Assembly (NCBI GenBank): GCA_013696315.1
Contig: JACCYU010000092.1
Span: 1-60,761 of the forward strand
From: Gammaproteobacteria bacterium
GTDB lineage: Bacteria > Pseudomonadota > Gammaproteobacteria > JACCYU01
DNA length: 60,761 nucleotides
Direction of reading: 5' to 3'
Position numbers and translations under genes: made by a program. A model generated the notes under the pieces. The model was not told the origin of the DNA, searched no databases, and saw only the letters and a program-made list of their open reading frames with translations. Positions 4,273 through 27,501 of the stretch are shown one piece after another; position 1 is the first letter of the stretch; every line of letters starts with the position of its first letter.

Positions 4273-6324
4273 TCACTCAAGCAGCGCTTTCAATAGCGCG
4301 TCCGGCGTATCCGAGTAGAACGGGATGTTGACACGCGTTGCCATATCATCGGAAAGCTCAACAAGTTGCTTGCGAGCGGAGACTGGCATCAGAACCGTAG
4401 CCGCCCCCTTCTCTACGGCTACCTCGACGATGCCAACGGCATTCGCTAACGGCTCCACCGAGCCACCGAGGTTCAATGCGCCAACCACGATCAGGCCACC
4501 TTTCATGCTCTTTTCTAACAGCCCGCTGCAAAGAGCCATCAATGCCGGCAGACCAAGAGCAGTCCCGGTACGGTCGTTGTCTATCGCGCGCAGCTGTACG
4601 GAGAACTCATGCGAACGCGGATCCCTATCCCCAACCAGTTCCTTTGCCCGCGTGTACAGGTTCTGCTCGGCGTAACGCACGCTCTCGCGGAACGCCGGCG
4701 GGACCGGGGCGTTCAGTATCTTGACGCCGCTACCCCGGCCGACGGTGGCCTCAATGCGGTAGAGGCTGGCGCCCGTCTCCAGGCCGCCCGGACTGATGCC
4801 CCACACCTGCCCTGGCGGCAGTGGGTCGAGCTCAATGGCTTCGTCGCTGTGCAGCTCTGGGGTCGTAACGAACTTCTCGATGCCGTCTTCGCCCATTGCG
4901 TAACTGAAATGCGTGTTGCGGAACTCGCTCTTGAACACCCGCTTCTGTTGTTCCTTGACCCGGCGACGCATTTCGAGGGCAACCCGGACCATCGCCTCCA
5001 GTTCATCGTCCGGGATGACCATCTCCGGGTCTGGATAAAGCAATTTCAGTAGGCCGCTTACGGTCTTGTTGACCGCCGTGATGTCCCGTCCGCTAAGCGC
5101 CCCGCCATAGTTCACGCGGCCCTGTAGCGCGGGAGTCCGACTGCCCGTCCGCAGCCGACTCCAGCACTCGGACAGAAAGTCACTGACCAAACCGAAGTGG
5201 TCCGTGAAGTGCTCGTTCGGACTCAACTTCGGGAAGTCCCACCCCGGCACATAGGCATGAATGCGGTCCATGAAAGCCGTGTCGTCCCGCATCTCTGGGG
5301 GTAGCGGGCTTAGGAGGTGCCCAAACCGCTGCTGGTGCGAGACCTCCACATTGAGGTTGCCGACCATGACGATACCCTCGGCCCTGATGCTCTCCTTGCC
5401 ACGGGAGAACTCCCCGGATTCCATGTATCCCTTGAGGATGTTCACGCCATCTTTCTGATCAAATGACACGCCCGAGATTTCATCGAAGCAGACCACGTCG
5501 TACTGGCAAACCAAGCCGCGTTGTCCTGTTCCCATATGAACGAACATCTTGGCCACCGTCGCCTTGCCGCCCGAAATCAGATGGGCGTAGGGAGAAATCT
5601 GCTGGAACAGGTGACTCTTCCCCGTCCCGCGGGGACCCAGCTCGACCATGTTGTAGTTCCGTTCTACGAACGGCACCATCCGGACAAGCGCCACCAACTG
5701 CGCCCGCTCCGAGAGCGCAGCTGGCTCGAGCCCAACGCTGCGGAGCAGAACACTTTTCCATTCTTCGCTGGTGAAGTCGTGTCGTCCGCGTTTGAGCGTA
5801 TCCAGTACATCGGCCTTGGACAGCTGAATGGCTCGAAGGCTGTCGATTGCGAAAGGACGGCCCCCTTTCTCTTGTGCGATGGCAGCGTCGTAGCTCAGCG
5901 TGACTTCGGCATAAAAGCCATCAGTGAGCATGCGCTCATGCTGCTTGACCAGACTGTCGTCGATGCGAACGTCTTTGATTGCGAGACTGGGGAGTTCGGC
6001 GACGAACGAGTCCGTCTTGGCGTCAAGCTTCGCTCTGACAATATCGATGAGCTTGATCGAGCCCAGGTCGCGGGCTCTCGCCTTGAAGAGCTCCACTTCG
6101 CCCGTTCTCACTGTCCGGTCAGCCAGCTGACGTTCGACGATCGTCAGCCCTTCCTCGATCTCCTGCTCGTCCGTGCTCGCGCAGTACCGCCCGAGAAGAA
6201 ACTCGACCACATACGTCGGCACCGGATACTGGCGGCTGTACTTGCGCACCAGGTCCTTACGTACCAGGTAGCCTTCAAACGCCGTCGCCGCCAAGCGATC
6301 GAGTTGATCGAGTACCACTTTCAA
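4273..6324 (-). CDS. brxL: BREX system Lon-protease-like ATPase BrxL
   Basis: 683 aa. Features: N-terminus FEGYLVRKDLVRKYSRQYPVPTYVVEFLLGRY, Walker A GPRGTGKSH, and a C-terminal Lon-like domain. Last gene of the canonical BREX-1 order. TTG start overlaps the pglZ stop (TTGA). Confidence 0.9.
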   Translation of the reverse strand: MKVVLDQLDRLAATAFEGYLVRKDLVRKYSRQYPVPTYVVEFLLGRYCASTDEQEIEEGLTIVERQLADRTVRTGEVELFKARARDLGSIKLIDIVRAKLDAKTDSFVAELPSLAIKDVRIDDSLVKQHERMLTDGFYAEVTLSYDAAIAQEKGGRPFAIDSLRAIQLSKADVLDTLKRGRHDFTSEEWKSVLLRSVGLEPAALSERAQLVALVRMVPFVERNYNMVELGPRGTGKSHLFQQISPYAHLISGGKATVAKMFVHMGTGQRGLVCQYDVVCFDEISGVSFDQKDGVNILKGYMESGEFSRGKESIRAEGIVMVGNLNVEVSHQQRFGHLLSPLPPEMRDDTAFMDRIHAYVPGWDFPKLSPNEHFTDHFGLVSDFLSECWSRLRTGSRTPALQGRVNYGGALSGRDITAVNKTVSGLLKLLYPDPEMVIPDDELEAMVRVALEMRRRVKEQQKRVFKSEFRNTHFSYAMGEDGIEKFVTTPELHSDEAIELDPLPPGQVWGISPGGLETGASLYRIEATVGRGSGVKILNAPVPPAFRESVRYAEQNLYTRAKELVGDRDPRSHEFSVQLRAIDNDRTGTALGLPALMALCSGLLEKSMKGGLIVVGALNLGGSVEPLANAVGIVEVAVEKGAATVLMPVSARKQLVELSDDMATRVNIPFYSDTPDALLKALLE

Positions 6325-8702
6325 TCCTCACCCCCGATGATCGTGGGTTGTTTAGTAATCACGTGGCCGCTTGCATCGAGCACGACCACGACAGCCGGCG
6401 TACCTGCAAGCTCGTCATCAGCAACCAGAAGGCTTGCCGCACCTTTGGCATCCACTGGTCGCACGTTGCTGACGCTCGAGCCCGGGTCGTTGACCTTCGT
6501 TCGCAGATCGACGGACAGCCCAGGCTGAGCGGACTCAATCTGCACCCTGCAGCGCAGGCCGGCCCAGGAGACGCCAGCCACCTTCGCTGCCGTCTTGGGA
6601 GTACTCGCGCCAGCGGTGACCCGGATGACGGGCACGAGACTCTCCTGCAGACTCAAGCCCCCGTGGGTGTATTCGTTACCCGCACAGAAACACGCGATAC
6701 CGGGCGCAACGGCTACACGTTCGTGCGCATTCCAGTGCCACCGCACGGTCGGTACCCCGACTTTCGATCCGCCCTTGATCGCGGCGCAGCGCGCCCACCG
6801 GCTCGCCGTGAGATATTTCGGGAGATCGACCTTGGGCAGCCCACCTGGAAGCCACAGCCAGCCGTGGTCCGTCACCACGCGGATTTCACGCCACCCGGCA
6901 TCCAGAAGGGATTCGATGCGTTCGAGCAGTAAGTCAACCTGGTCTTCAATTCGACCGGCGAGTTTCCCTTGCAATGAGTGGCCCAGCTTGTCGAGTTCCT
7001 CGTTCTCGGTCCAACCTCGACCCGATGGGTCGCCCGTCTCATCCACCCCAACATACTGATAGCCCGCCGCAGACAGCAGCTTGCGGAACCGATCCGTGGT
7101 CAGCGGTTGTTCAGTGTCTGCCGTCGCGGGCAGAAAATCCTCGCCGAGGGATAATCCCTTGATGTCCTCTGCCACCGGAGACACTGCCGGTTTCGCAGTT
7201 GCCGTGACCGTCGGCAGGCCGGCCCAGCGGGTTGACATCATCACGGACCAGCCCTTCGCCCGCATGCGCTCCGCCAGGCCTTGCGAAACGTCTAAGCGGA
7301 GCCCATCCGCGAACTGGATCATCCCGCCGGATTCGACTTGTACATCCTCCATCCCCTGCCCATCGTAACCAGGAAGGGGTTCCTTTTCGGCCAACTCTTG
7401 CAGGTGCTCAGCCGCCGACTCCAGCCAGGGACGGTATATGGCGTTCAACGCCTTGCTTAGAGCCTGGGCGTCAGCGGACCATTTCACCGCGGCCATCGTG
7501 GAAAGCGCCGCAGCGTCCGCCTCCCATGCCGCATCGACATACAGCTTGGCCATATCGGCCGCTGTTGCACCGCCGAGTTTGCTCGACGTGCGCGCAGCGA
7601 GCACCGCCAAGTGCGCGAGGGCGTTCGCCAACGGCGCCTGATCGAGCCTCGCCCAGACCCAGCCACGTCTCAGACCGTGGGTCTTCTCCAGCGAAAGAAT
7701 CTGCGCGCGCGCGGCCGCTGGCGATTTTTTCTCGAGGTCAAGGAGAGCTTGTCGGAGACTCGCCTCCGCTTCCTCGTTGCGCTGCGGCCAAGGTGAAGGA
7801 TCGGAGAGTAGATCCGTCTGAAAGGGCATGGCCTTACGCAACAACTCCGGCACGCCCGGGTACAACGTCGGCGATTCGGCAAAACGCTCCCACACGCGCC
7901 CCCACGGGCCCGCCCTCTGTCCGAGCAGCTCAGCTGCTACCAGCTCGCCATCCTTGTCCGGATCAAACTTGAGGTCCGCCTTGCAACGCGACTTGAAAGC
8001 GCTCCAGCGTCCGCTGTTCCAACCGGACTTCACCGCGTCCGGGTCGCTCAGCCAGAGCAGCAAGTCTTTTGCGGGGTCATCGGAGAAGAGCTTATCGAAA
8101 TCCTCTGCTTCGAGATGCTTGCCTTTGAGCCTTTCCACCGACGTCGTCGCCAGCTCGGTAAGCGCGCCCACCATCGACCGACGGGTGGCTGCATCGCGCG
8201 CCACATCCAGACCAAGCCCGCCGTCTTCGGCGACCAGGAATGCCTCGACGCTCCAGTCCTTGCCGTTCTTCTGGGTCCAGCACACACCTCGGTATTGAAG
8301 CTCCACCAGCGGCTTGAGGCTATCCGGGCACTCCTGGACGGCCCTGAGTTCCTGCCGGCTGACCCCGGGCAGGTAGATAATCGGTATTGTTCCCTCTTGG
8401 ATCGCGACGTCTGGGAGCGCACGGTCGACCACGCTGCGTAACCAGATCGCCGGGCCGATGCGCTGCTCAGGCTGGTACTCCCCAAACGTCAGAAGCTGTG
8501 GCAGCAGCCGCCGAAGCTGGGGAACGACTGGCTGCCATTGAGCATCTTGATCCGTCCACAAGACGGCGTACGGATGCACAACATCGTTCGGGTTGTACCT
8601 CACTGCACCCTCCAGCGAGCGAACCAAAGACTCAACGACGGTAATACTCGAGTGGACTGCTTGGGTTCTCACCGTATCGCCTTCTTCACGATACACCTGC
8701 AA
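6321..8702 (-). CDS. pglZ: BREX-1 alkaline-phosphatase-superfamily protein PglZ
   Basis: 793 aa with N-terminal YAVLWTDQDAQW and the PglZ core IRVVTDHGWLWLPGG. Sits directly upstream of brxL. Start is uncertain: TTG 8702, GTG 8696 or a later GTG. Confidence 0.9.
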   Translation of the reverse strand: MQVYREEGDTVRTQAVHSSITVVESLVRSLEGAVRYNPNDVVHPYAVLWTDQDAQWQPVVPQLRRLLPQLLTFGEYQPEQRIGPAIWLRSVVDRALPDVAIQEGTIPIIYLPGVSRQELRAVQECPDSLKPLVELQYRGVCWTQKNGKDWSVEAFLVAEDGGLGLDVARDAATRRSMVGALTELATTSVERLKGKHLEAEDFDKLFSDDPAKDLLLWLSDPDAVKSGWNSGRWSAFKSRCKADLKFDPDKDGELVAAELLGQRAGPWGRVWERFAESPTLYPGVPELLRKAMPFQTDLLSDPSPWPQRNEEAEASLRQALLDLEKKSPAAARAQILSLEKTHGLRRGWVWARLDQAPLANALAHLAVLAARTSSKLGGATAADMAKLYVDAAWEADAAALSTMAAVKWSADAQALSKALNAIYRPWLESAAEHLQELAEKEPLPGYDGQGMEDVQVESGGMIQFADGLRLDVSQGLAERMRAKGWSVMMSTRWAGLPTVTATAKPAVSPVAEDIKGLSLGEDFLPATADTEQPLTTDRFRKLLSAAGYQYVGVDETGDPSGRGWTENEELDKLGHSLQGKLAGRIEDQVDLLLERIESLLDAGWREIRVVTDHGWLWLPGGLPKVDLPKYLTASRWARCAAIKGGSKVGVPTVRWHWNAHERVAVAPGIACFCAGNEYTHGGLSLQESLVPVIRVTAGASTPKTAAKVAGVSWAGLRCRVQIESAQPGLSVDLRTKVNDPGSSVSNVRPVDAKGAASLLVADDELAGTPAVVVVLDASGHVITKQPTIIGGED

Positions 8703-9948
8703 CGTAAATCGTCAGCATGAGTTCCGATTCGTCGACCAGACGGTATTCCGGGGCTTTTCCTGACAGTTGTTCGCTGCGAGACAAGATGATCGGCACACCT
8801 TCACCGCGTTTGTCCATGATGTGGGAGCGATGAGCTGCAAACTCGTCTCCCTCAACCGGACAGCGCGCGAGTAGACTAGTAATGGCTTCGTTACGGGCGG
8901 CTTGCCGATAAGGCAGGCTCTCAGGCGTCATGGTGTTGGCAAGTAGTCCCAGCGTGTACAGCTCCAGCCTGTCGTCGAACAACCGCAGGCGCACCTTGCT
9001 GCCCGCCATCGAATAGTCGCGATGCGCGACGGCGTTGGTCACCGCCTCGAAGACGGCGAGCATGTCGTACTGCGGCAAGTCCTCGCGCCCGCCCTCCGCG
9101 CGCTTTCGAGCCGCACTCTGCATATTCTTTCGCACGAAGTCGCAAGCATCGAAGATCTGGTGGTCCAGTGAACCTGTAATGTTTCGGGCATCGCGCTGAT
9201 AAGCCGACTCGATTTGCGGTGCAATCACTGACCCCCGGTAGGCCACGGCCTGAACGAAGGCGCCGGGCAGGAACCGCTCGGGTTCCCGGCAAGCCATGAG
9301 CACTCCGGCCACGGTGGGCCGCCACACGTCAGCATCATCTTGCGAAGCCATTGCCAACTTGGCGAGCAGCTGTTCGGGCGCGTCGGTCGAGCGCAGCGTG
9401 CCGAAGCGACGCCACAATGGCTCTTCGAGATCGGCAAGCGTCGCCCGCGGCACCGGCGTTTCATCAAAACGAATCAGACGGGCTTGGCTGCGCTGCTGGA
9501 AAAGTCGCGCCAGTTGATCGGGTGGTATAGGTCGCTTCGATGATCCAACCCGATGACAATATCCCGCCGGACTTTGGTGCACGAACAGACTGGGCGGCAC
9601 TTCGATGCGTATTACAGGCTGCTCCGTCCCTCCGCTGTCTGGCAGCGTAAGCCGCTCGATCACCGGTGCCGCAGGCGGCTTGATCGAGTCCTCGCACGCC
9701 TGGCGCACCATCGTTTCCACGGCATCAAGCCGATCGACGGGAATGCCCAGTACCTCGCGCGTTTTGTCATGCACCCCCAATACCAACACGCCGCCGCGGC
9801 TGTTGGCGAAGGCAGCCAGCCGATCGGCAAGGTCGTTCTGTCCAGGGCCACGAATCTTACCGCTGGCAAAACGCACCTCCTTCAGTTCCAGGAAACTGTC
9901 TTCGCCCAGTCGAATCTTTTCGAGCAGTTCGCTGCGTGTCGCGAACAT
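8686..9948 (-). CDS. AlbA_2 (Schlafen-like, 'divergent AAA_4') + HATPase_c_4 domain protein, BREX-embedded
   Basis: 420 aa. The N-terminus ESxFLELKEV...LADRLAAFANSRGGVLVLGV is typical of the AlbA_2/Schlafen-type DNA/RNA-binding domain. The C-terminal EAVTNAVAHRDY motif is typical of HATPase_c_4. The ATG lies 1 nt after the upstream stop, with a GGGAGG SD inside the upstream gene. Confidence 0.75.
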   Translation of the reverse strand: MFATRSELLEKIRLGEDSFLELKEVRFASGKIRGPGQNDLADRLAAFANSRGGVLVLGVHDKTREVLGIPVDRLDAVETMVRQACEDSIKPPAAPVIERLTLPDSGGTEQPVIRIEVPPSLFVHQSPAGYCHRVGSSKRPIPPDQLARLFQQRSQARLIRFDETPVPRATLADLEEPLWRRFGTLRSTDAPEQLLAKLAMASQDDADVWRPTVAGVLMACREPERFLPGAFVQAVAYRGSVIAPQIESAYQRDARNITGSLDHQIFDACDFVRKNMQSAARKRAEGGREDLPQYDMLAVFEAVTNAVAHRDYSMAGSKVRLRLFDDRLELYTLGLLANTMTPESLPYRQAARNEAITSLLARCPVEGDEFAAHRSHIMDKRGEGVPIILSRSEQLSGKAPEYRLVDESELMLTIYVAGVS

Positions 9949-9949
9949 G

Positions 9950-12747
9950 TCAGACCTCCCGCCCCAATCGTGCCCAGCGGCGGGAGAACGCCTCGCGACC
10001 GCCTTCCATTACCCGACAGACTTCCTCTCGGACCGTCTTCTCTTGCAATGCACCGCGCTCGACGACTCGGCACTGGCCGCCTCGGAAATCGAAGGCATGC
10101 ACCATCTCCGGATCCCCGTTGACCACCACGTTAGGGTTATGCGTCACGATGATCAGTTGCCGGCGCTGCTTGTTCTCGCGGATCTGGCGTACAATCAGCT
10201 GATAAATCAAATGGTTGTCCAGATCGTCCTCGGGCTGGTCGAGGATCAGCGGCTCATCGCCGAACGCAAGCAGAAACGCCAGCAGGGCTGCCGAACGCTG
10301 GCCTTGCGAGCCCTGGGTAATGGCCGACCAGTCACGCCCGTCTCCCCCGCGACTGTATTCGATGCGAAGGTCGCCCTCTGGGAACCAGCAGCGGGCGTGA
10401 TCGGTAAACTCGGGTTTTTCAGCTTACGCTGGAGGTAATTCTGGAAATGCCCGCCGAAGTCAGTATCAAGCTCAATCATCCGCTGCTTGATGCTTTGCAA
10501 TACGACCTCCCGATCTGGGGCGTCCGCTAACTCGAACGCCAACCCGCCCGCAGGCTCGCCGTCATCGAACCGCAAGATGTCGTTTTCGAAGCGGTCGTCC
10601 TGCGCATCAAGCAGATCGCGCAAACTGCGCTCGATGCTGCGCGCATCGAAGCCAAATCCAACCACCTTCATACGCACGAAGTTATTGGTCTCCAACGTGG
10701 CCACTACAAATTGGGCACGCGCCTGCGTCGTGTCCCTGCGCGTGTCAAACACGCGTTGCCACTGGGCCTCGCTTTCAGCTTCCAGGCGTTCCCGATCCTG
10801 GCGTAGCTGATCGAGCTGTTTCAGTTGTGCTTCAAGATGTTGACGCTCCTGTACCAATCGCCCGAAGGCTTGCGGATCGGCGACGCCTTGTGCTGCGAGT
10901 GCGGCTTGAAGCGCCTCATAGTCGGTCTGCGCCTTGTCAGCGCGCTGGCGCCACTCTGCAAGCCGGCCGTCAGTGGCAAGCACCCGGACCTTCGCGGCGA
11001 GCGTGTCTGCGGCTCGTCCGAGCGCCTCGCGGGCCTCGCCCAATGTCCGCTCTGCCTCGACCCGCCACGCGAGGGCCTCGCGATCCCGCGTGGCATCGAA
11101 GGTGCCATCCGGCCAGTCGTCGAGCAGTAGATCTTGCGCCAAAGCCTCGATGCCCCCGGGTGTCGTTTGCAGTTGCTCAAGAGTTGTATCGATCTCCCGG
11201 CGCTGTCGAAGAGCTTGCTGGTGGGCCTTCAGCACCTCGGCGTGATGGGACTGTGCCAAGGCTTCGAGCTTGCGATTCAGGTCCGCGAGCTTGCGTTCCA
11301 GCTCCGGCCGTCCGGCTAATCTCCCGTCCAGTTCGCGCAACCTTGCTCGCTGTGAAAAAAAGGCGTTCTTCGCCTCTCTAAAGGCTCGATGCAGTTCTCC
11401 TATGTTGGCCGCTTCGTCAATCACGTCGAGCAACGCCTGCCGGCTGTCTCCAGCCATAGCCGCGATCTGCTTCTGTGAACATAACCGGATCGGGAAGCGC
11501 TCCGCATGCACCGCTTGGCTGGACGATGTTCGCCACTCGCCATCGTCGTCTTGTTCCTCGACGACCGCCCCTGGGGGGTCCCGGCGCCAGCGCAGTCGGT
11601 GCGTAAATCCCTCGCGCATCAGCGCCACGCGGATTTCAGTGTTTTCTCGCAGCGCGCCATCCCCGTCGCGCCCCTTAACTGGTTGAGAAAAACTCTTGAA
11701 CTCGCGGGAGGGCTCTGTCTCGTCTCCGAGGCGACGCAACTCATCATCTCGCTGGTACGCTAGGCGCAGAGCATGCACAATGGTCGACTTGCCCGTACCG
11801 CGTCCTCCGATCAACGCATTGTAGTAAGGCGTGAAGGCAAGCCGCTCCTGGGTGCCGTTACCCATAAAGCGTGCAGACTCGATCTCGATGCCGGTGATGA
11901 AGTGTGCCGGCGTCTGGAACCGGTCGAACTCCCCTTCGTCACTCCGCCGGATCGAGATCCCGTTGCCATCCAGAAGCGCGAGGCGCTGCCCTTCCAACGT
12001 GGGGCTCGCCATCTTGACCCAGGTATAGCCTGAGCCGGGAACGCCGTTACCCTGGAAGCTGTGACAGTCGCTACCCAACACCCGCGCCCACTTGCCACGG
12101 CATTCGTCGAATACCGTAGGGGTGAGTGAACGCAAATCACACCACTCCATCGCCAATACGTCCTTGACTTCAAACACCTGTCGAATGGTGTTGGCGTCGA
12201 GATGCGGTTGCCTGCCATTCGCAACCCGTAACAATCCCTTTTCCTTGTCGGCGTGCGCGGGTATGGCAACCCCGCCTGCGTCGAGTACTGCTTGCACCAC
12301 CTCGGCCGGACCCAAGCGGGTAACACCGTCGCTGTCGCCCTCGGTTCCTTGGTACCTGACGGTCGCCAGTAGGTCCGTGATAGTGCGGGTCGTTAATTCT
12401 GGATCAAAGATCGCGAGCAAATGGAAACCGCTGGAAACAGAAAGCTCGACGCCTGGGAATAGCGTCAACTCCCGAAATCCCTCAGGCGGCGACCCGGCAT
12501 CGTCTTGCCCCTTCATCTGGTCGTAGGCCGCCTTGAGGCCATCGACCCACGCGCCGCTGTTGTGGTCGGTGATCGCTACGCAATCGACCTCGGCGGCCAT
12601 GTAGCGCAACAACCAGTCTTCAGGTGCGACAGCACCACCGTTCTTCGCCCAGTAAGTATCGGTGGAGGCCGGTGTATGCGTATGAAAGTCGAACTTCCAC
12701 CAGCGCGATCCCGGGTAGGGCCAATCTTTTTGTGTGTGATCAGTCAT
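9950..12747 (-). pseudogene. PHP-phosphoesterase / SMC-like ABC ATPase fusion (Ppl / TrlF-like), one frameshift
   Basis: Track ORFs 10246..12747 and 9950..10210, plus my translation of the gap.
- PHP motifs: FDFHTHTPAS, ITDHN.
- Walker A: GGRGTGKST.
- Coiled coil of ~350 aa.
- After a frame change at the T5 run 10415..10419: KPEFTDHARCWFPEGDLRIEYSRGGDGRDWSAITQGSQGQRSAALLAFLLAFGDEPLILDQPEDDLDNHLIYQLI...LIIVTHNPN, giving the ABC signature, Walker B and H-loop.
- Length 2798 nt; adding 1 nt gives 933 codons. Confidence 0.75.
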
Positions 12748-15700
12748 GGCTGTTTATCCTCCGCCCGTTCGCGGGCCGCGCGTTTCTCGGCAACAGTGAG
12801 ATGCACGTCGTTGACACGCTCGCCGGTGAATTTGCCGTTGTTCCAGAACCACGCGAACTGCGCCTGGTCGCGTATAGGTTCTTTGCCGCGGTCCTTGTTC
12901 CGGTGGATGTTCGGCTTAGCGCGCAGGATGCCGGCGCCTCTCTTGGCGCCCGGAATGTCCTTGGCCATGAAGGGACGAATGTTCAACCGCACGCCGTCGT
13001 TGATGTCCGGCGCCCAGCCGATGGCTTGTTCCTCAATGGGCTTCCAGCGCACGAAAATGTCGAAAGGCGGTTCGCCCTCTATTATGGCGATGAGGCGTTT
13101 CTGCAATTCCAGCGCCGCGGCCAGGCGATCCTCCGCGCCACCTTCACCGCGCTTCACACCATCCTGCTGGCGCGCGATCCAGTCGCCGAGATAGCTGTAG
13201 GTGAGGGACTCCAGAAGGCGCCGGCCCTTGCCGTTGCCCTCGGCCAGCTTATGGTAGTTGACCAGGGCGTGGAAGCCATCGCGCTTGCGGCCATCCCAGA
13301 TGTGCCATATGAAGGGGCGGTGATGGAACAGCTTGCAGTGCTGTTCGAAGAACCGGTTGCGTAGCCAATCGTCGAGACTGTTACTGCCGGCCTCCGCAAG
13401 CAATTTCGAGAGCGTGTCGTTGCCCCATTCGTCGCCCCAGGCGGCTACCAGTAGATGCAACAAGCGCTCGTGCGCAGGTCGTTCACCACGCGCGGACGGC
13501 AGGCAGACAATACCGTCTGCATCCCCCTGATGGATCAAATCATCCGGGGCGAGCGCCGGGCAATCGGGAAAACTTGAACCGGTCTGGCGCGGCCACTGGT
13601 AGCCGAGCAACCGGGCCACGACCACCTGCAACGGCTGGCCTGAACCTTTGGGCTGCCGTTGAACAACCACTGCGTCGGGTCGCTCGAAAACGGCTTGGGC
13701 AACCCGTGCGGATACTTCTCCGCCGCCACCTTCTGCCAGTAAGCCAGGTCGAAGGGAACTTTTACGAGCGATGAATTTGTAACTTTGAGTGCTTGATCGA
13801 CACTACGCACATTCAGAGAAAACTGCGGTGATGAGCAGTAACACCAAATCGCAGCAAGGTCCGATTCCTCATTTGGGCATATCGCGCCGACATTGTCATC
13901 AAAGCGATCTCCGAGATAAAGTGTGGAGGCTAGCCCGGACATGCGGCTAACAATGATTCCTTTCTTTCCCCACACCTCTTGCCCAGTTCGCCATCGTTGA
14001 ATGGCCGTGTTAAGGTGCCTAACGCTCTGGGCGGCGGCATAAAGTTCGCCGGTGCCTTGTTGCCAAAAGACGACTTGGGATCGACCGCCATAATATTCCG
14101 ATAGACCCACGGTGCTTTGCAGATACTCCCAGTCAGGTTTGATGCTCGTGGGCTCCCAAAAAATTGGAAAAAGCGATTTCCATCTCCGGTCAACATTCCT
14201 GAAGCGAACGATGCGACTTTGTTCAGGAATGCCGAACGTATTTGGGTATCAATCACGATTCGAGCGTCGGGATTCAACAACTGATCTGCTTGCCGGGCGA
14301 TCACCGGAGGACATAAATTTTGGTCGCTAAGTCTTAATGATTTTTCGACCGGCGTCGTTGCTTCCGTCACGTCAAGCCCTGCCATCGTTGCTCCGTCGCG
14401 AGGCCGTGCAGCTGATATGACGCCCAGTTGTATATTGAAATCCCACATTGGCGTCTGAAAGCCCTTTGGCCCAAGCCGAGCGATGATATTCCACGTTTGA
14501 TACTTCAACAGAGATTTTCGAAGCGTCGAATAGATACCAAGAAACAACCAATTCTGCGGCGTGACCAATGCGGTCGTGCCGGAGTCTGGACAGAAGGTAA
14601 GGCAACGCTCCACGAAAGCTGTGGCTAAGTCGGCTTTGCTAGCGGGAAAATATTGCTCCAAGTGGTTCCTGAGGATGTCGTCCTGCTTTCGGCTACCGAG
14701 GTAAGGCACGTTGGTGGCGACGAGCGTGAACTGGCCGGCGAGAATTTCCGCCGCCTTGGCCAGGCCGCGCGCGGTCACGGCCATTTCGTGCGCGGTGTCG
14801 TCCCTGACTTCCTGCGCCAGCGCCTTTTCCAGCAGCGGCTGGAGTTCATGGAACGCGGCCACCAGCAGGTCGCCCTCGCCGGCGCGCGGGTTGATGAGGC
14901 TGCCCAGCACCGCCGCCTTGGTGAACAGCCGGTAAAGCCGCTCCATGCCGCGCTGGAGCTTCTGGTTGTCGCCGGCAATCGCGAGCCATTCGGCTTCGCG
15001 CGTGTTCGGCGCGAGACCGGAGCAGGCCAGGTTCAGCCGGCAGCGCGCAGTGGCCCACGCGCCGCCACGCGGCCAGCGCCAGGTTGAACGCGCCGATCTG
15101 CGTGCAGCGCGGGTCAAGCTCTAGCCCGAACAGGTTGTCGCGGATGACCGCCGCCACCGCTGCCTTCTCGTCCAGCTGTTCCTCCGCCATGCGCAGCGCG
15201 ACGAGCCGCTCAAACATCGCCACCACGAAATGTCCGCTGCCCATACATGGGTCGAGGCACTTGAGTTCCTTCGCCGTCTTCGGCCAGCCGTCAAACGTGC
15301 CGGCGGCGGGAGTCCACTTGCCGCCCTCACCTTGGATGAAGCGGAGATATTTCCATGGCCAGCACGGCAGCGACACGGCCTGGCGGAGTTCGTCCTCGCT
15401 CTGCGCCTTTTCGGCCAGATTGGGATTGGCGGCGAAAACCTTGCCCGCGTGCCACGCGCCGAGCGTGTTATCGAGCAAAAAGTCCACCATGTAATCCTCC
15501 GTGAACAGTTGCGTGACCGCCGGCAGTTCATCCGCGCCGATCTTGTTGCCGGCGGCGTTCACCTCATCCTTCTTCCTGGTCTGCCAGAACTGGTAAACCC
15601 AGCCGAGCGAGTCCGTCGCAGTAAAGACATCGGTCGGCAGGCCTTCAACCAGCGTTTCCAGTTTCAATCGATGCTCCCGCGCGAGCTGGACTTTGAACAC

Positions 15701-16147
15701 CGGATGGTCGGGGCGGAACACCTGCGGCAGCATCCGATTGGCAAAGCGCGCAGCCAGCGCCCATTGGTCGACGCCCTCTTTCTTCGCCAGCTCTTCACAT
15801 TCAGCCAGGGTGATGGCGACCCCCATGTCCGGTTCGATGAGCAAATCGCTCTCGGCGAGAAAGCGGGCAAAGAGCATTCCGTGCCAGTGCTCGTAGGCGC
15901 ACTCGTGCACCTGGTGATCGATGCCCTGGCTTCCCGAACGCGCATCGAGCCGGTCACCGAGCTGGCGCGCGTGGGCGCGCAACCGCCGGCGCAGGGTGCG
16001 CTGCTCCGAGCTCATATGCCCGTACGGCTCGTGGTGGTGCACGGCGAGCGCCTCCAACGCTACACGGGCGCCCGCTTCAGCCACGTCGCGCGCTTGGACA
16101 ACAGTGCGTTCGAGTTGCCTGCGAAGGTGTGGCGAGAGCGTTTCCAC
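12744..16147 (-). pseudogene. pglX: BREX-1 N6-adenine DNA methyltransferase PglX, three frameshifts
   Basis: Four overlapping pieces: 14846..16147, 13930..15117, 13535..14110 and 12744..13670.
- Motif I LDPCMGSGHF, motif IV ATNVPYLG, C-terminal LQVVVARLLGYQWP.
- Joined reading: ...FNLALAAW..ALP|LNLACSGL..., ...GNRFFQFF|WEPTSIKPDWEYLQSTVGLSEYYGG..., ...DPTQWLFNGSPK|GSGQPLQVVVARLL...
- Length 3404 nt. Removing one inserted base and restoring two deleted ones gives 3405 nt, a multiple of 3. Confidence 0.85.
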
Positions 16148-16156
16148 GATTCTGGG

Positions 16157-16445
16157 TCACTCGAATTCGGCACGCGGCAGGCCGGCCCAAGGGGTGATCG
16201 ACATCATTCGGCAAAACGCCCCCGCATTATTTTCAGGCGAATGAACTTCTGTAGGGTGGATTAAGGCGCGTAGCGCCGAATTCACAGCGGTTGGTGGATA
16301 CGCCCGCAAAACCGGCGGGCTTTATCCACCCTACATGGCTACATTGCTGGATGACCTTACCATCGTGCAGAGGCATTTTCGGGAAAACCGCGAGCCGCCA
16401 GAATTTGGCGGACATCCTGCCGGAAAGGACCCGCAACTTACGCAA
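16157..16445 (-). pseudogene. hicA: hicA (YcfA/HicA-family toxin) remnant: frame-disrupted and split by a REP-like element
   Basis: The reading begins LRKLRVLSG. The HicA-like stretch DVRQILAARGF is only seen after a 1-nt frame switch, then ...GKVIQQCSH ends exactly at the REP element. The 30 codons after the element end ...SITPWAGLPRAEFE*, resembling the AGLxxxEF HicA C-terminus. The start overlaps the hicB stop. The reconstruction is tentative. Confidence 0.4.
16250..16335. repeat. 86-bp REP/MITE-like nested palindromic element
   Basis: Terminal inverted repeats: tgtagggtggat (16250..16261) and atccaccctaca (16324..16335). Internal hairpins: ggcgc-gta-gcgcc (16265..16277), and ggtggata/gcccgc...gcgggc/tatccacc (16293..16330). 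The architecture resembles enterobacterial-type REP units. Confidence 0.6.
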
Positions 16446-16659
16446 CGGCCACCTCGACGTGGGTCACATAGACTTCGCTGTGCAGCCGCTGCTGAATCTC
16501 GGTGGCGGAAGCGGTCTCGAAAAACAGTTCCAGAGCCGCCTTGAGATTATTGCGCGCCTCGTCCACCGTCGCGCCCTCGCTGGCGACATCCACGTCCGGA
16601 CACAAGGCGACGTAGCCGTCGCCCTCCCGTTCAATGATTGCCGTTAGCTGTCTGTTCAT
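16438..16659 (-). CDS. hicB: HicB-family antitoxin (UPF0150 fold, no DNA-binding extension)
   Basis: 73 aa: LTAIIEREGDGYVALCPDVDVASEGATVDEARNNLKAALELFFE matches the HicB N-terminal domain pattern (YxAxIExExDGYVAxCPExDxASQGxTxEEAxxNLKEALELY). Confidence 0.8.
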   Translation of the reverse strand: MNRQLTAIIEREGDGYVALCPDVDVASEGATVDEARNNLKAALELFFETASATEIQQRLHSEVYVTHVEVAVA

Positions 16660-16687
16660 GGCTGTACTCCTCTGTCGTTCGATCTCA

Positions 16688-19600
16688 TCAATTGACGAAC
16701 ACAGGCCCGTGCCTGATCTGTTCGAGCAACTCCTGCTCGGTCTTCACGATCCACGCGTTGACCTCATCGGGCGTGCGGAGCGTGGCGCTGCCGAGCTTGA
16801 CGTGGTGTGTTTTGGGCTCGACGAGCTTGTCGGCCTGGATGCGCGCGTCTGCGAAGAGCTGTGGGAGTGCCGCCGTGCGCGTCCTCCATGCAGCTAGGGA
16901 AATACGCTCTAGGGATTCGAGCACTTCCTGCTCGGTGCCCGTCACGCCCTTGGTGATCTTGACGATGTGCAACTGGCCAAGGATCCGATCCCCTTCCTCT
17001 TGCCCGATCTTGTGCCAGCTCTCGGCACTTGCAAGGCGCTGCCATTCCGCCTCAAAAATTTCGGCGTAGCGCTTCTCCGCTTGCGCAAGGGCCATCCGGA
17101 GCGCATCCGCCAGCGCCTTGGTGAGGTCGGGCACTCGATCCGTCGCGTCGAGCAGGCCGCGGTTCGCCGCGATGGCCTCGATCTGTGGCTTCGCCTCCTT
17201 CGCGGCATCCAGGCTATCGACATGACGGGCCAATGACAGCAAGCGCTCGTAAGCCGGCTGGCGCTTGTCTGCCATGTCGCGAGCCTTACTCCACTCTTCG
17301 ATGTTCTTGATGAGTTCATCGTGACGGTTGAGGATGCCGAGCAGTTGCTCATTACCGGCACGCGACTGCAGATCCAATAGGTGGCTGGTATCCGGGCGTT
17401 CGGGCAGCGGGGCTTCGCCCCCGGCACGGTTAGCCAACTCGGCGAGCTTTGCGAGGAACTGGCCGGCAGCCGCCGCCTCGTCGTTCGGCTTGCAGGCAAT
17501 CCCAGCCGTCTGAAACAATTTGCGCACCTTGAGGCGCTCGCGGGTGTCGATGGTCGCGCTCTCGACGCGGAAGTCGGTACTCGACACCTTCGCCTGATCC
17601 AGCTGCCCCGGCTTCAGCGGCGTTCCGTTTGCGGTCGCGCGCAGATGCCCGGTACCAAACAGGCTGATGAGCGCTGCGTCGACCGCATCTCGCGACCACC
17701 CATAGGGCGGGCCCGAGAAATGAGAGCGCACATCCTTACCCTTTTTCCCGGATCCGACGAACGACAGCACGGCCGAGCAGACCGGATGATCTTCGGTCTT
17801 GCCGCTGTAGTCCAGCGCCTCCAGGGGATGCTCGGCGCCCTTGCGGGCCCGCTCGATGACTTTCGGCCAACGGTGGTCGTCGGCGTCCTTGAACTCATAG
17901 AAGAGCCGATCCAGAGATGCGTCGGCGGCTTCCCTCACCTTATCCAGCAGCGTTGATTCCAATCGCTCGGTACCGCCACCCTGGAACACCTTCGCCCCAT
18001 CGACGACTTCGGCCACGAGTGTCCGCAGGCTGTTGGCTGCCTCGGTTAGCCGAGTCTCCATGCCCTGACGGGCCTCGATACCTTCGGGGGTCGAGGGGAC
18101 TCCCTTGTATTCTAAAGTATCCTTCGCCGCGCTCTGGGCGGCGATGACGCGGGCCAGCGCGTCGGCGCGAGATTTGGGCACAAACACGTGGATGATGGGA
18201 CTGTCGGCCCCCGCCGCACGTGCATCGGCGACCACGCTCTTCTCGTCGGCGCCCCAGCCATCGCGTATCCAGACCGGAACCTCGTGGCCGGTTTCCTGCG
18301 GAGGTTCGGTGCCGAAGTGCAACGCGAGCTTCCTGGGCTCCTTGCACTTGCCATGCAGGAGCTTCACGGACCCCACCGCATCCTGTACCGCGGAGCCAAG
18401 GAGCTGAGCGCGTTTGCTGCTCATGCGAGTGGGATCATTGACGAGCTTGGTTTGCCGGTTGCGGAACTCGGCTTCCCATTCGCTGCTTTCCCGCGTCTGA
18501 AGACTGTACTCATCGTCCAGCTTGATCAGCGTGCCAGCGGCCACCAGCTCGTCCAGCAGCTTCGGTACCTGACCGCGCAGCGTGGCGCCGTCCTTCGCCA
18601 GATCCTTCACCAGCAGATCCGCCAATGCATCGGCGGTGGCGCGAACCCCGATGTCGGCACCCGCTTCCCGCGGGAGCTTGCGGATAAGGAACACCAGTGC
18701 GCACAGCCGCGACTTGAGGCGGCCGTCGGGAGTGCCGTCGTCCTGCGCGATGATGGTCTCGTTGACCTCGCGGAGCAGAACACCGGACTGAAGCAGGTTG
18801 GCGGAGATCTCCTCGAATAGAAAATCCGCTGGCACCACCGTACCGACTGGCTCCTCGGCGGTGCGCCGTATGGCGTCGTAGACGATACAAAGCTGCGTGC
18901 GGAGCTGTCCGGCAGTGCCCGCGCGGTCAACCGCGCGCAGAGTATGCTCCCAGAAGCGCCGGCGGACGGGCAGCAACGGATAGTCCTCGACCAGGATCGA
19001 CTTATCCTCGCCGCGGGGTCCGATCTTGGTGCTCACCAAGTGACGGTCGAGTTCCCCTGAGTTGGCTTCCAGAGTCGATCTGACGTCGTTCACTCGGTCC
19101 GGGCGCTTCGCCAGGACAACCCGCCGGGTGACCGTTTCAACATCGTTGTCGGAGAGTTCCACATTGACCGTGAACGGCCCTGGAGACGTTGAAGCGCCGG
19201 CGTGCCCGAAAGGGCGGTTTGTCCAGTACCCAGGAAGAGCAGGCGATCGCCGAACCGTTTGCTGCAGGCTTCAACCACCTCCTGAACGACGTAGGATCGG
19301 CTGGAGTCGTCTCCGATGTACTGCTGCACCTCATCGAGGATGATGACGGCGCCAGGCATCTCGCCGTTGGACGACAGCGTGTCCTGTAGCGCGTTGACGA
19401 ACTCGTCGGTGGTGATGTCCTTCGGCTTCGGGAACTGAGCACGCAATGCAGCCCTGGCGTCCTTCTCGTTGGCTGCGAAGTTCGAGTCCGCAACGAACAA
19501 GGCTTTCGTGATCAAGGGGCTGACATACAGATCATTCAGCTCACGGCGGAACTCGCGCCCTTCCGCCTCGACCGCCGCGCGCACCTGATCGTAAATATCA

Positions 19601-20130
19601 TTCTTCTTCAGCCAGAGGGAGAAGCGCGCCTGGGGGAAACTCTCGGGGAGTTCCGCGGACTTGAACACAATCCCGAGAAGCGCGAGCCGAACGCTGTCAC
19701 CGGCGCCGGCGCCGAGGGTTCCGGCCGCCGCATGCAACCCGTGGCCTCGCTTGCCCAGTGTCGAGATTTCCTTCAGCAGATCCTCGACGTCATTCGGAAG
19801 CCGAGCCAAACCGCTGGCACTGGCGCCATCTTCGGGGAAGGTGTAGTCCGTCCACAGGAAGCGCAGCATTTTGGCCAGGTGAGATTTGCCGCTGCCGAAG
19901 AATCCGCTGATCCACGCTGCCGGTTGCTCGGGGTGGCCCTGATTGCTGACGTACGAATCGAGAATGCGAACCAGGCCGCGTTGATACTCACCTTCACAGA
20001 CGAAGTACTCGAGTTCGAAGCGCAGCGTGCGGCGCTCGTCATCGCTCAGGGCGTCGGTCATGGCCGCGACGCCATTGTTGAGCAAAGTGATCTTGCTGGG
20101 ATCCCGCTGGTAGATATCCCGGTTTTTCAT
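16688..20130 (-). pseudogene. brxC: BREX-1 P-loop ATPase BrxC/PglY, one frameshift
   Basis: Pieces 19090..20187 and 16688..19162, with Walker A SGFFGSGKSH.
- ATG 20130 (MKNRDIYQRDP) overlaps the brxB stop as ATGA.
- The joined reading ...GTPALQRLQGR|FTVNVELSDNDVETVTRRVVLAKRP needs one extra T in cgttcacgg (plus strand aa 19173..19174).
- Length 3443 nt; adding 1 nt gives 1148 codons. Confidence 0.85.
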
Positions 20131-20696
20131 ACCTCGTACACGCCTCGATCTTCTTGCACCGTAATCGGGACTGCCAGGTAGTTCCATCCATCCCGCGCGT
20201 CCAGCAAACGATAGTTGCTGTTCTCGTACTCACCAGGGAAGAACACAACCACACGACCTCTGATATCCCGCTCGATCTCCTTCATTAACTCCGATACGCG
20301 GACGAACCCGAACAGAGAAGCGATACCATAGACCCCCACAACCGAGTTATCGTCAATGCCGGACGCCGTGAGTGCGGCACGCATCTGCCCGGCGACGTAT
20401 TCAAGAAAGGCATCGTCGAGCTTTAACTCAAGATCTTCCGGGCACTCGAAGTAACTGTCTCGGTACTCCGTATTGGCCATCCACTCCGCAAATGCCCGAG
20501 TCAGATCACACTCGCTCCAACCATGCCCTGCCTCCGCGGTCGCCAGCGCGAACAGATCTTTCCGCGCCCGCAGCCGCCGCTCGTCGGCTTTGTCGTAAAC
20601 GATGAAAATGGCACGCTGCGCGCCCGCCAGGTCCTTTTGCCACGGAAGCGCAATGTAGCTCTTGTAGCGGTCAGCCAACCTGTCGATGCGCCCCAT
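20127..20696 (-). CDS. brxB: BREX protein BrxB (DUF1788)
   Basis: 189 aa: RIDRLADRYKSYIALPWQKDLAGAQRAIFIVYDKADERRLRARKDLF is typical of BrxB. Positioned between brxA and brxC. Confidence 0.85.
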   Translation of the reverse strand: MGRIDRLADRYKSYIALPWQKDLAGAQRAIFIVYDKADERRLRARKDLFALATAEAGHGWSECDLTRAFAEWMANTEYRDSYFECPEDLELKLDDAFLEYVAGQMRAALTASGIDDNSVVGVYGIASLFGFVRVSELMKEIERDIRGRVVVFFPGEYENSNYRLLDARDGWNYLAVPITVQEDRGVYEV

Positions 20697-21510
20697 GGAT
20701 CAACTCCCGCTCCTTCTCGGTGAACATGGTCGGAAACGACACGTCAATGACCGAGCCAGATTGCTTGAAATGGAGCAGTCCAAGCCGCCTGGCATCAACC
20801 GCAACATCAATGAGCTCTTCGGGGCTGGCATCCAACATGGCAGCCCAGGGCGTCTCGAATAGCGAGCGCCCACGCCGCCCCATGGCAAAACCCAGCAACA
20901 ACGCATACGCACTTGCCGCGGGCGTTGCCTCGACGCGCTGTCTGGTCTTACGCCCGCGTCCAAGCAGATGCCCGGACTGGGTCCAAGACGACGAGGCATT
21001 GCGCACTACTTTATCCAGCGTCGCATCGTTGAGGCGATCGCCAATAGCATCGGAAAGCGCATCCTTCATCGATTGCCGTGCGAACTCGTGCCCAAACGGA
21101 GTGCCGATTATGGCCCTTGTGGTTGCTCTTAGCAGCGGGTCGCGCGCGAGAGCGAGCAGGAGCGCAAGGAGTGGGCGACTGGTTTCGTGCCTGCCCCAGA
21201 GGTCCCTCAGAACGCGGAAAAGCATGATCCGAGCATCAAGCCCATAGAGCTCAGTCAGCCTTTGGAGGGAGAGCTTGCGGGTTGCCGCTGTCCTCTTGCC
21301 CAGACAATTGTCCTCCACAACCGCATGCGCGTAGTCTTCACGGGAGGCTTCGCCGGGAGCCGCTTCCAGCAGACGCGACAGCTCGTCAAGCATGATCGTC
21401 CGACTGGTGTGAGTGCCGCGGCCACCAGAACGGAATCCCCAAAGCAAGGCGCGGTTCGGCGGGAGACCGGCTATCCCGGTTTCGAAATTCGGATCGTATA
21501 TTGCGCCCAC
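20671..21510 (-). CDS. brxA: BREX protein BrxA (DUF1819)
   Basis: 279-aa ORF, first gene of the operon, overlapping the brxB start. Helical and Leu/Ala/Arg-rich, consistent with DUF1819. The start codon is uncertain because the ORF is longer than the ~200 aa I recall as typical. Confidence 0.75.
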   Translation of the reverse strand: MGAIYDPNFETGIAGLPPNRALLWGFRSGGRGTHTSRTIMLDELSRLLEAAPGEASREDYAHAVVEDNCLGKRTAATRKLSLQRLTELYGLDARIMLFRVLRDLWGRHETSRPLLALLLALARDPLLRATTRAIIGTPFGHEFARQSMKDALSDAIGDRLNDATLDKVVRNASSSWTQSGHLLGRGRKTRQRVEATPAASAYALLLGFAMGRRGRSLFETPWAAMLDASPEELIDVAVDARRLGLLHFKQSGSVIDVSFPTMFTEKERELIHGAHRQVG

Positions 21511-21910: not shown

Positions 21911-22669
21911 ATGCGAATGCTGATGGGCACCCGGGAACGTCGCCAGCGCGAGATCGCCGAGCGTGAACAGCGCTTTCTCGATTGCGCGCGCGCTTTGATG
22001 CTGCAGGATGGTCTGCTCGGCCTGCAGATGGCGCGGGTGGCCGAGGCCTGCGATTACGCGACCGGCACGCTCTATCAGCATTTCGAATCCAAGGAAGACC
22101 TGCTGGTCGCGCTGGCCTGAGACAAGGCCGCCATCCGTGCCGAACTGTTCGAACGCGCGGCGCGCTGGCAGGCGCCGTCACGCGAACGTATTTTCGCGGT
22201 CGCGGTCGGCGACATGATTTTCGCGCGCCGCTATCCGGATTACTTTCGGCTGGCGCAGTATGTTGTTACCGAAGTGGTGTGGCGCGCGTCCTCGGCCCGG
22301 CGGCGCACGCAGGCACTGGCGGCCAGCAAACTCATCAGCGCCGCCGTGTTCGACATTTATCGGGATGCGATGGCGTCGGGCGATCTGCCGGCGCGCGGGC
22401 TCACTGTTCCCGAATTGATGGTGGGCCCGTGGACGCTCTGTCTTGGCATGCATACGCTGGTGCACGCCGAAGGCATGTTGCAGCAATACGAGGTGCGCGA
22501 TCCGTACCGCCTGCTGATGCGCAATGTTCATCACTTACTGAACGGCTATGGCTGGCGGCCGCTGTTCGACCCCGAAGATGACGCCACCCTGGATGCCTTC
22601 ATCGCCCGTGTCTGCGAAGAAGTGTTTCATGACAGCTGCGTGATGCGCGACGATGCGCCCGCGCATTGA
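21911..22669 (+). pseudogene. TetR/AcrR-family regulator interrupted by an in-frame TGA
   Basis: Track ORFs 21911..22120 and 22214..22669 are in the same frame. My translation across the gap reads ...ATGTLYQHFESKEDLLVALA*DKAAIRAELFERAARWQAPSRERIFAVAVGDMIFARRYPDYF... The N-terminal HTH is typical of TetR. The single stop is at 22118..22120. Confidence 0.8.
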
Positions 22670-22703
22670 TCAGCCACCCGCCCCTTCACTTCGCGTACCT
22701 GTC

Positions 22704-23891
22704 ATGACTTACCGCTCCATTCTGCTGCCCGTCGGGGCGCTGCTGGTGTTCGGCGGGCTGATGTTCGTCAAGTGGTATGGCGACAAGCAGATGAACGCCA
22801 TGTTCGACAACATGCCGGAACCCCCGGTGACCATTTCGTCCGCGCAGGTACAACAGGGGCGCTGGCCGCGGGAGGTTGAAACGGTGGGCACCTTCGCTGC
22901 GGTCAACGGGGCCCAGCTCGCCACCGAAGCCAGCGGTATCGTCGATGATATCAGCTTCAAAAATGGCTCCGCTGTCAAGGCCGGCGAGATTATTCTGCGC
23001 CTGAATACCGACATCGAGGTGGCTGAACTCAACGCGCTAGAGGCCGCCGCCCGCCTGGCCGAAATCGAACTGGAACGGGTTCGCAGTCTCTATGAATCGA
23101 ACAATGTCTCCAGGGCCGAGGTCGATATCCGCCAGACCCAGGCCGACCAGGCGCGCGCCAACCTCGATGCGCAGCGCGCGCGGGTTGAGCAGAAGACGAT
23201 AGTGGCGCCAGTCTCCGGGGTGCTGGGCATCCGGCAGGTGAATCTCGGACAGTACGTCGAGGCCGGCAGCGCGATCGTTACATTGCAATCACTGGATCCG
23301 ATTTTTCTCAACTTCATGCTACCGGAGCAGCGGCTGACCGACATCTCCGCCGGGCAGCTGGTGACCGCGCATGGAAGTGCTTTCGCGGACGAGCCATTTC
23401 ACGGCGTCGTCACCGCGATCGAGCCGCGGGTGGAGCAGAGCACGCGCAATTTCATGATTCAGGCGACCATTGATAATCCGGATGGCCATTTGCGCCCCGG
23501 CATGTTCGCGCGGGTAGAGCTGGCGTTCGGAGCGCCACAGGAGGTGCTCACCGTGCCGCAAACGGCCATTAACTTTAACCCTTATGGCAATTCCGTTTAT
23601 GTCATTCGTGAAGCTCGCGTGCCCGCGCAATCGCCACCGCCGGGCAATAGAGAACCTGCGCCCGCTGGCAGCGCGCAGGCGACCGAGCAACCACCGCGGC
23701 TTACCGTGGTGCAGCGCTTCATACGCACCGGCGCGCGGCGTGGCGACCTGATTTCGGTCACGGACGGCCTGCGGGCCGGCGAAAGAGTAGCGACCAGCGG
23801 GCTACTGAAGCTGCGCAACGAGGCAGTCGTTAATATCAACAACAAGATCAGGCCCGAAGCGGATGTTTCGCCTACTCCGCCGAATAGCTGA
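22704..23891 (+). CDS. RND efflux periplasmic adaptor (membrane fusion protein)
   Basis: Track ORF 22653..23891. ATG 22704 is preferred, giving MTYRSILLPVGALLVFGGLMF as the TM anchor. Also has a coiled-coil hairpin and the beta-barrel motif IVAPVSGVLGIRQVNLGQYV. Confidence 0.85.
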   Translation: MTYRSILLPVGALLVFGGLMFVKWYGDKQMNAMFDNMPEPPVTISSAQVQQGRWPREVETVGTFAAVNGAQLATEASGIVDDISFKNGSAVKAGEIILRLNTDIEVAELNALEAAARLAEIELERVRSLYESNNVSRAEVDIRQTQADQARANLDAQRARVEQKTIVAPVSGVLGIRQVNLGQYVEAGSAIVTLQSLDPIFLNFMLPEQRLTDISAGQLVTAHGSAFADEPFHGVVTAIEPRVEQSTRNFMIQATIDNPDGHLRPGMFARVELAFGAPQEVLTVPQTAINFNPYGNSVYVIREARVPAQSPPPGNREPAPAGSAQATEQPPRLTVVQRFIRTGARRGDLISVTDGLRAGERVATSGLLKLRNEAVVNINNKIRPEADVSPTPPNS

Positions 23892-23978
23892 CGATCCAAC
23901 CTGTCGTAAGCAGCGCTCGCGCGCCATGACAGGCCTGGAGCGGGACATTTCTCTCCCGCGAATCAGCTAACCCCGGCC

Positions 23979-27128: not shown

Positions 27129-27214
27129 ATTCTCAAAAAAGCAACCGGGCTGGCTGCCGAAACGTCAAACGTCCGCGGCGCTGGCTGGGTAGCAAGGAGG
27201 AGTTACCGCGACTG

Positions 27215-27406: not shown

Positions 27407-27430
27407 CGATTGATCTCCCGTGTGCGTAAT

Positions 27431-27449: not shown

Positions 27450-27501
27450 ATTAGTAATGCAAGCGGTCCGGGCAAAAAAATTCTGTGGCCGCAAAAACGA
27501 C

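Follow-up and report, generated by a model that had tools for sequence, protein, structure and literature searches.

A frameshifted type 1 BREX operon, very probably dead and eroding neutrally, in a gammaproteobacterial contig

Gene content and order of the BREX operon

The window, i.e. the whole stretch of 60,761 nucleotides that was analysed, is an entire NCBI contig (JACCYU010000092.1) of a gammaproteobacterium. It contains on its minus strand a BREX operon spanning 21510..4273, in which brxA, brxB, brxC, pglX, pglZ and brxL were all matched using NCBIfam, Pfam and PADLOC and form one cluster in the order canonical for type 1 systems. Two accessory genes are inserted between pglX and pglZ, giving the order brxA-brxB-brxC-pglX-[Ppl-like]-[AlbA_2]-pglZ-brxL, with every gene on the minus strand. 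The genes brxA (279 aa) and brxB (189 aa) occupy 20127..21510 as intact ORFs (PADLOC BrxA E=1.5e-100, BrxB E=6.8e-78; Pfam BrxB) and are followed by a brxC pseudogene at 16688..20130, recognized by the NF033441 profile, and by a pseudogene of pglX, encoding the BREX-1 adenine methyltransferase, at 12744..16147, in which three of the four fragments match NCBIfam NF033452 (BREX_1_MTaseX). Next comes a frameshifted defence gene for a Ppl/TrlF-like PHP-ATPase at 9950..12747 (PADLOC Ppl, NCBIfam TrlF_fam_ATP), and then an accessory gene with Schlafen AlbA_2 and HATPase_c_4 domains (Pfam) at 8686..9948, whose ORF of 420 aa is intact. The operon is completed by pglZ, encoding the BREX-1 type B phosphatase, at 6321..8702 (NF033450 E=4e-275) and by the Lon-like brxL at 4273..6324 (TIGR02653, Pfam BrxL_N/BrxL_ATPase), both with intact ORFs in the window.

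Identification of the methyltransferase gene as pglX of BREX, as proposed in the first-pass annotation, is confirmed by the profile match and by the six-gene type 1 cluster around it. PglX gives hits with NF033452, PF07669 and PF02384, and the DPCMGSGHF and TNVPY motifs are conserved in the repaired protein, followed by a variable specificity block, in line with a gamma-class N6-adenine methyltransferase carrying SAM-binding and NPPY-type motifs. The Ppl-like gene matches PADLOC Ppl with E=4.6e-124 over profile positions 4-644 of 894, and its uncorrected ORF of 833 aa, taken without repair, scores 366 bits with NCBIfam TrlF (cut-off 350) and 328 bits with NCBIfam Ppl (cut-off 1000). A search for tRNA genes that could mark integration-site boundaries of a BREX island found none within the window. 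By gene content and order the locus is a type 1 BREX; the intact pglX and brxC needed for function are not there, both genes being broken.

The closest intact operons, with all eight genes in this layout, are those of a Logan contig from SRR13203225 (L081) and of Sedimenticola selenatireducens DSM 17993 (L001), whose gene order is identical to that of the window including the Ppl-like and AlbA_2 inserts, orthologues of the AlbA_2 gene being present in both; in contrast to the window, all genes of these two loci are intact. Amino-acid identity of BrxA, BrxB, BrxC, PglZ and BrxL is 82-93% to L081 and 78-92% to L001, and the conserved N- and C-terminal parts of PglX share ~85% identity with their closest relative, L081. 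Among GTDB representative genomes, a search for a near-identical intact allele found no relative above 67% identity.

Three nested deletions in pglX

As the first-pass annotation had stated, pglX can be read only by switching frame three times, since its minus-strand sequence falls into four ORFs that use three frames (14846-16147, 13930-15117, 13535-14110 and 12744-13670), and three small repairs restore a single uninterrupted ORF. Its repaired product of 1135 aa is colinear over its full length with intact homologues (1116-1191 aa), the closest of which is 73% identical overall. The accompanying arithmetic of one insertion and two deletions, turning 3404 into 3405 nt, was mistaken: all three lesions are deletions, and the ancestral gene is 3408 nt long (1135 codons plus stop).

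Sister sequences were located by searching with the specificity domain and by way of cluster members; the exact products of the Ppl-like fragment, Lpd and BioA of the window had no record, one cause for ORFs that start with GTG or TTG being translation of the start codon as V or L in place of M. L086/L089 belong to the NCBI MAG GCA_051001175.1 and are 99.6-99.7% identical to window positions 4374-38532. L087/L090 come from the Logan assembly of SRR33880244, the differences of L087 from the window being those of L086 and the counts for L090 being near-identical to those for L089. Three shorter sequences cover parts of pglX: L088 (NCBI GCA_020063985.1, window 12151-14378), L091 (ENA ERZ27252437, window 12212-14568, one SNP) and L092 (JGI 3300012185, window 12262-14417, one SNP). 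The reads behind L086 and L087 are probably the same, and the other samples are taken to be independent because their accessions differ.

Site 1 is a 2-nt deletion between positions 15036 and 15035 (minus strand), where ancestral GCA ATG AAC, encoding part of LPAMNL, was converted from GC[AA]TGAAC to GCTGAAC. A 2-nt gap appears in the window in each DNA alignment (with L001, L018 and L027), which overturns the earlier reading of one extra base, e.g. c at 15037, and every intact homologue reads LPAMNLACSGL here. The deletion lies outside any repeat. The sequence at site 1 is identical in L086 and L087, and the sister fragment P0176 has the same out-of-frame leader peptide as the window; L088, L091 and L092 do not extend over this stretch. 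Site 1 is the only frameshift common to all compared lineages that cover it. As judged from these alignments, it is the oldest detectable lesion, because no other frameshift is shared with the divergent sister MAG, and it is a plausible inactivating event, perhaps the first.

Site 2, within the target-recognition domain, is the loss of C from TTCTTTT, which leaves a run of six T on the coding strand (14158..14163, minus strand). The deletion is common to the window, L088, L091 and L092 and is absent from L086 and L087, which read CAATTCTTTTGGG at this position; the 99.6%-identical sister, intact at site 2, has CAA TTC TTT TGG, encoding the peptide FFQFFW. The first-pass annotation had placed a frameshift in this T6/A6 run, and both run and frameshift are real, but the T7 ancestor that it assumed is contradicted by the intact sister allele, TTCTTTT. 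On the alleles compared, the T6 run is a product of the C deletion and not a contracted T7.

At site 3 (13655..13657, minus strand) GGG has become GG by a 1-nt deletion: ancestral AAC GGG CAG, encoding NGQ, is read as AAC GGG CAG CCC (NGQP) by the sisters and as AAC GG- CAG by the window, with the missing base at 13656-13657. The G is kept in L086, L087 and L088 and is lost from the window, L091 and L092; P0362 and P0363 start with the out-of-frame leader VVVQRQ at this site. That one base is missing here had been recognized correctly, while the interval given for it, 13645-13652, lies 4-5 nt away from the true site as located by the GGG run and the sister alignment, and the restored peptide had been given wrongly as NGSPKGSGQPL, the sisters having NGQPKGSGQPL.

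The three pglX lesions are therefore nested among the assemblies in the order site 1, site 2, site 3, and this nested sharing identifies them as inherited mutations and not assembly errors. Were the frameshifts consensus artefacts of assembly or sequencing, the gene would be intact in the organism. Three of the five frameshifts found in the window do lie in short runs (GG, GGG and A6) prone to long-read consensus errors. However, all three pglX lesions recur across other accessions and assemblers (NCBI, Logan, ENA and JGI), the 2-nt deletion at site 1 is outside any repeat, and some 30 housekeeping genes at 22.6-60.7 kb (~38 kb), together with glgA, give full-length profile matches with no frame break, no coding indel being present against the sister in 14.9 kb. 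Such errors are a very improbable explanation.

Even less probable is phase variation, in which slippage between T6 and T7 in pglX would toggle BREX in the manner of the G tract of Streptomyces Pgl, a switch that had been suggested for this site. The T6 run falls exactly at one of the frameshifts, one added T would restore the same residues (FFW), and in Streptomyces phase variation of pglX through a homopolymer has been described (PMC4365076); disruptions of pglX are moreover said to be common (PMC9122589, PMC11341690). Against a switch, the intact allele of the sister, TTCTTTT, is not a homopolymer, and T6 has the same length in all four assemblies with the deletion (window, L088, L091 and L092), with no length heterogeneity. 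Six T are also short for a contingency locus, and T6 was the only tract found when pglX was searched for long simple-sequence tracts. The two other pglX lesions, outside long tracts, and the frameshifts in brxC and the Ppl-like gene described below would break the system at any tract length. The suggested switch is thus not borne out by the TTCTTTT allele of the sister, the fixed nested lesions and the further breaks.

Two other ways of joining the pieces of pglX were considered and rejected. Three sites that need shifts in different directions are not explained by programmed frameshifting on the ribosome or by slippage during transcription; two of them have no slippery motif, and the T-run at the remaining one is not conserved in the sister. 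For a shufflon or invertible pglX cassette, positions 1-24000 contain neither inverted or direct repeats of cassette size nor a second pglX fragment.

Lesions outside pglX and in the sister lineage

Extension of the decay beyond pglX had been missed in the first reading. In brxC a 1-nt deletion (GG to G) at ~19174 splits the gene, leaving ~319 codons in one piece and ~830 in the other, so that NF033441 positions 1-320 and 325-1172 fall in separate ORFs; the deletion is seen as a 1-nt gap relative to four relatives (L001, L018, L027 and L086), and the repaired product of 1147 aa has the length found in L081. The Ppl-like gene has lost one base of an A6 run, now A5, at ~10414, placing its last 155 residues in another frame; the tblastn alignment of the intact L081 protein changes frame at 10414-10417. 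Repair yields a product of 932 aa, the length at which the gene is intact in the sister L086. These two lesions are seen in the window alone, with no second assembly, and for them assembly error is a formal possibility, although no coding indels occur elsewhere in the assembly that carries them. Bacterial pseudogenes usually show a deletion bias, with which the later lesions of the window agree, and all five frameshifts in it are small deletions.

The sister MAG has lesions of its own, given here in window coordinates: a private 2-nt deletion in brxC (17636-17637), private deletions of 5 nt (15289-15293) and 1 nt (14465) in pglX, and a private 1-nt insertion in pglZ (G5 to G6, window 6657) that splits the product into 689 and 74 aa; its brxL shows an in-frame 3-nt difference from the window. 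On top of the shared site 1, each of the two lineages, which are ~0.3% apart, has thus gained four private frameshifts that differ from those of the other.

Substitutions in the BREX operon and housekeeping genes

Selection was assessed by comparing the window with the 99.6%-identical sister over the BREX operon and the adjoining 16 kb of housekeeping genes. Within the operon, 56 coding SNPs (42 nonsynonymous and 14 synonymous) give a dN/dS of 0.96, indistinguishable from neutral (p=0.88), whereas the 38 coding SNPs of the housekeeping genes (21 nonsynonymous and 17 synonymous) give 0.41, a departure from neutrality towards lower values (p=0.008). The operon has nine coding indel events and the housekeeping genes none (one intergenic), and the chance of all nine landing in BREX coding sequence is 0.003. 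Because the nonsynonymous-to-synonymous ratios of the two gene sets, compared directly, differ only marginally (Fisher p=0.07), more weight is given to the indel evidence. In a relative-rate test against the intact L081 locus, private amino-acid changes of the window lineage outnumbered those of L081 ~1.4-fold in every BREX gene tested, an excess that is uniform and by which broken and intact genes are not separable.

The most probable explanation, held with high confidence, is that this is a dead type 1 BREX operon, no longer functional and decaying under neutrality. The 'irreversible decay' that had been offered as the other possibility for pglX is upheld by the nested lesions, by the further broken genes and by the neutral substitutions. 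Five ORFs of the window are still intact (brxA, brxB, AlbA_2, pglZ and brxL), and some retained function of these genes is possible. Their integrity could also speak for a selected, partial remodelling, in which the knock-out of pglX and brxC was adaptive, for instance by letting in beneficial foreign DNA or by ridding the cell of a methyltransferase that is costly or toxic, and the intact genes were kept for another role; location of the first lesion in pglX, the gene least harmful to lose (PMC4365076), would fit such a course as well. However, the share of nonsynonymous SNPs is as high in the intact genes as in the broken ones (nonsynonymous to synonymous 4:0 in AlbA_2, 4:1 in pglZ, 7:2 in brxL and 2:0 in brxA), pglZ is frameshifted in the sister, and the lack of lesions in 7 kb of intact genes, given five lesions in 16.8 kb, is statistically unremarkable (P about 0.12). 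Adaptive remodelling is hence improbable, if less so than assembly error or phase variation, and neutral erosion remains the preferred reading.

The specificity segment of PglX

The target-recognition (specificity) segment of pglX, at 13789..14705 on the minus strand, is hypervariable and low in GC, with 51% against 61-66% in its flanks. No DNA homology to L081 was found across this stretch, and at the protein level it shares ~30-58% amino-acid identity with any database protein. The dip is present in all seven pglX homologues checked, as a block of ~0.9 kb with 48-52% GC between flanks of 59-64%, in loci ranging from 51 to 61% GC, and the block is unrelated at the DNA level between pglX genes that are otherwise 80-85% identical. 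This family-wide, low-GC and non-homologous block is the one feature of the locus that might merit a broader look. Tentatively, and with the odds rather against it, the specificity segment of the PglX family might constitute a self-contained, horizontally exchanged pool of cassettes with a base composition of its own. If so, BREX specificity in this family would evolve mainly by cassette replacement, and the lesions of the window would record the aftermath of the last cassette swap, once the system had been abandoned.

Order of breakdown

In Salmonella BREX, brxB, brxC, pglX and pglZ are each needed for methylation and restriction (PMC11341690). With three frameshifts in pglX and one in brxC, we infer that BREX is phenotypically off, as the first-pass annotation had expected for the loss of PglX. 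The site 1 deletion truncates PglX upstream of its catalytic NVPY motif and of the specificity domain, and without PglX there would be neither BREX methylation nor exclusion, whereupon the remaining genes would presumably lose their selective value. The window lineage would then have gained site 2 and, after it, site 3 of pglX, along with the brxC and Ppl-like lesions, and the sister MAG would independently have gained its lesions in brxC (2 nt), pglX (5 nt and 1 nt) and pglZ (+1).

Loss of pglX first may have been a harmless, safe route to shedding BREX, because PglX is reported to be toxic in the absence of PglZ in Streptomyces (PMC4365076); in Acinetobacter BREX, deletion of pglZ results in slower growth (PMC9122589). 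The locus offers a small natural example of the order in which BREX breaks down, a methyltransferase lesion being shared and different genes following in each sister lineage. This order is consistent with PglX being the dangerous component once PglZ is lost, and adds no new mechanism. For annotation, the contig should be recorded as carrying a dead BREX locus; BREX protection should not be credited to the organism, nor is a BREX methylation motif to be expected from it.

Comparison with known systems

The operon shares its six core genes and their order with the type 1 BREX systems of E. coli HS, Salmonella StySA, Acinetobacter and B. cereus, and its PglX has, like theirs, MmeI/Eco57I-type gamma-class motifs, a variable specificity domain and a conserved C-terminal region. 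It differs from them in being an array of pseudogenes with five frameshifts and in its Ppl/TrlF-like and AlbA_2/HATPase_c_4 inserts. With the Pgl system of Streptomyces coelicolor, a type 2 BREX, it has in common a pglX frameshift at a homopolymer and a system silenced by loss of pglX. However, Pgl contains a long G tract that gains and loses length reversibly at 10^-2 to 10^-4 (PMC4365076), whereas the T6 run of the window arose by deletion of a C, is constant in length in four assemblies and is accompanied by irreversible lesions. Generic decay of bacterial pseudogenes resembles the locus in all respects, namely small deletions, clustering in accessory DNA, neutral substitutions and lesions that differ between sisters, with no material difference. 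Disrupted pglX is already known, and PMC9122589 (citing Goldfarb 2015) and PMC11341690 describe it as frequent in BREX loci; the window is a further example, of plain pseudogenisation rather than regulation.

Lesions in and around the BREX operon

The brxC gene (16688-20130, minus strand) is a pseudogene due to the loss of one G from a GG at position 19174, and this frameshift leaves pieces of ~319 and ~830 codons. Sequence comparison revealed that neither the sister MAG nor any of the relatives is damaged at this site. Immediately downstream of brxL, a CitMHS/ArsB-type permease gene (2942-4162, minus strand) is a further multi-lesion pseudogene adjoining the BREX operon. It can be read only as three or more pieces: the frame changes between Pfam profile positions 10-113 and 114-277, and a third frame encodes the C-terminal piece. 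On the plus strand, a TetR-family regulator gene (21911-22669), located upstream of an RND efflux pump (22653-27128), carries a single in-frame stop (22118-22120), which falls after the HTH domain. In the sister MAG this regulator is called with an identical split of 65 + 151 amino acids. Because the regulator is interrupted by this stop, the pump may be derepressed.

Divergence from the sister MAG outside the operon

The housekeeping genes at 22536-38532 differ by 0.29% from those of the sister MAG contig L089, with a dN/dS of ~0.41, which is high for core metabolism. With several pseudogenes also lying within 25 kb, this value is a hint of weak purifying selection, which could stem from a host-restricted lifestyle or a small population. 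Alternatively, it could simply reflect very recent divergence. The two genomes also differ downstream of sucB: in L089 a DDE_Tnp_1 transposase gene follows (16119-17474), whereas in the window sucA comes directly after sucB (~38454-38636). This difference would correspond to an IS insertion or a rearrangement. The next-closest FadJ homologues, the sister aside, are only 83% and 77% identical, and therefore the lineage is poorly sampled.

Possible exchange and mobility of BREX components

The specificity block of pglX (13789-14705) has a GC content of 48-52% in every homologue checked (L081, L001, L018, L027, L082, L004 and L003), and the parts flanking it within the same genes have 59-66%. Across this block, DNA homology is absent between pglX genes that are otherwise 80-85% identical. 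The block looks like an exchanged cassette pool having its own base composition. In the relatives L082-L085, which carry P0001, the BREX operon adjoins the conjugation genes TraU and TraG_N, and the gene after it encodes a UvrD/PDDEXK helicase-nuclease that includes an M78 peptidase domain. This setting suggests that this BREX family is carried by conjugative elements.

Accessory genes between pglX and pglZ

Inside the operon, a Ppl/TrlF-like PHP-ATPase defence gene (9950-12747, minus strand), accompanied by an AlbA_2/HATPase_c_4 gene (8686-9948), lies between pglX and pglZ and is itself frameshifted by an A6 to A5 change at ~10414. The same two-gene insert is present, with both genes unbroken, in L081 (Logan SRR13203225) and in Sedimenticola (L001), whereas in L018 and L027 this position is occupied by other genes, only 24-33% identical.
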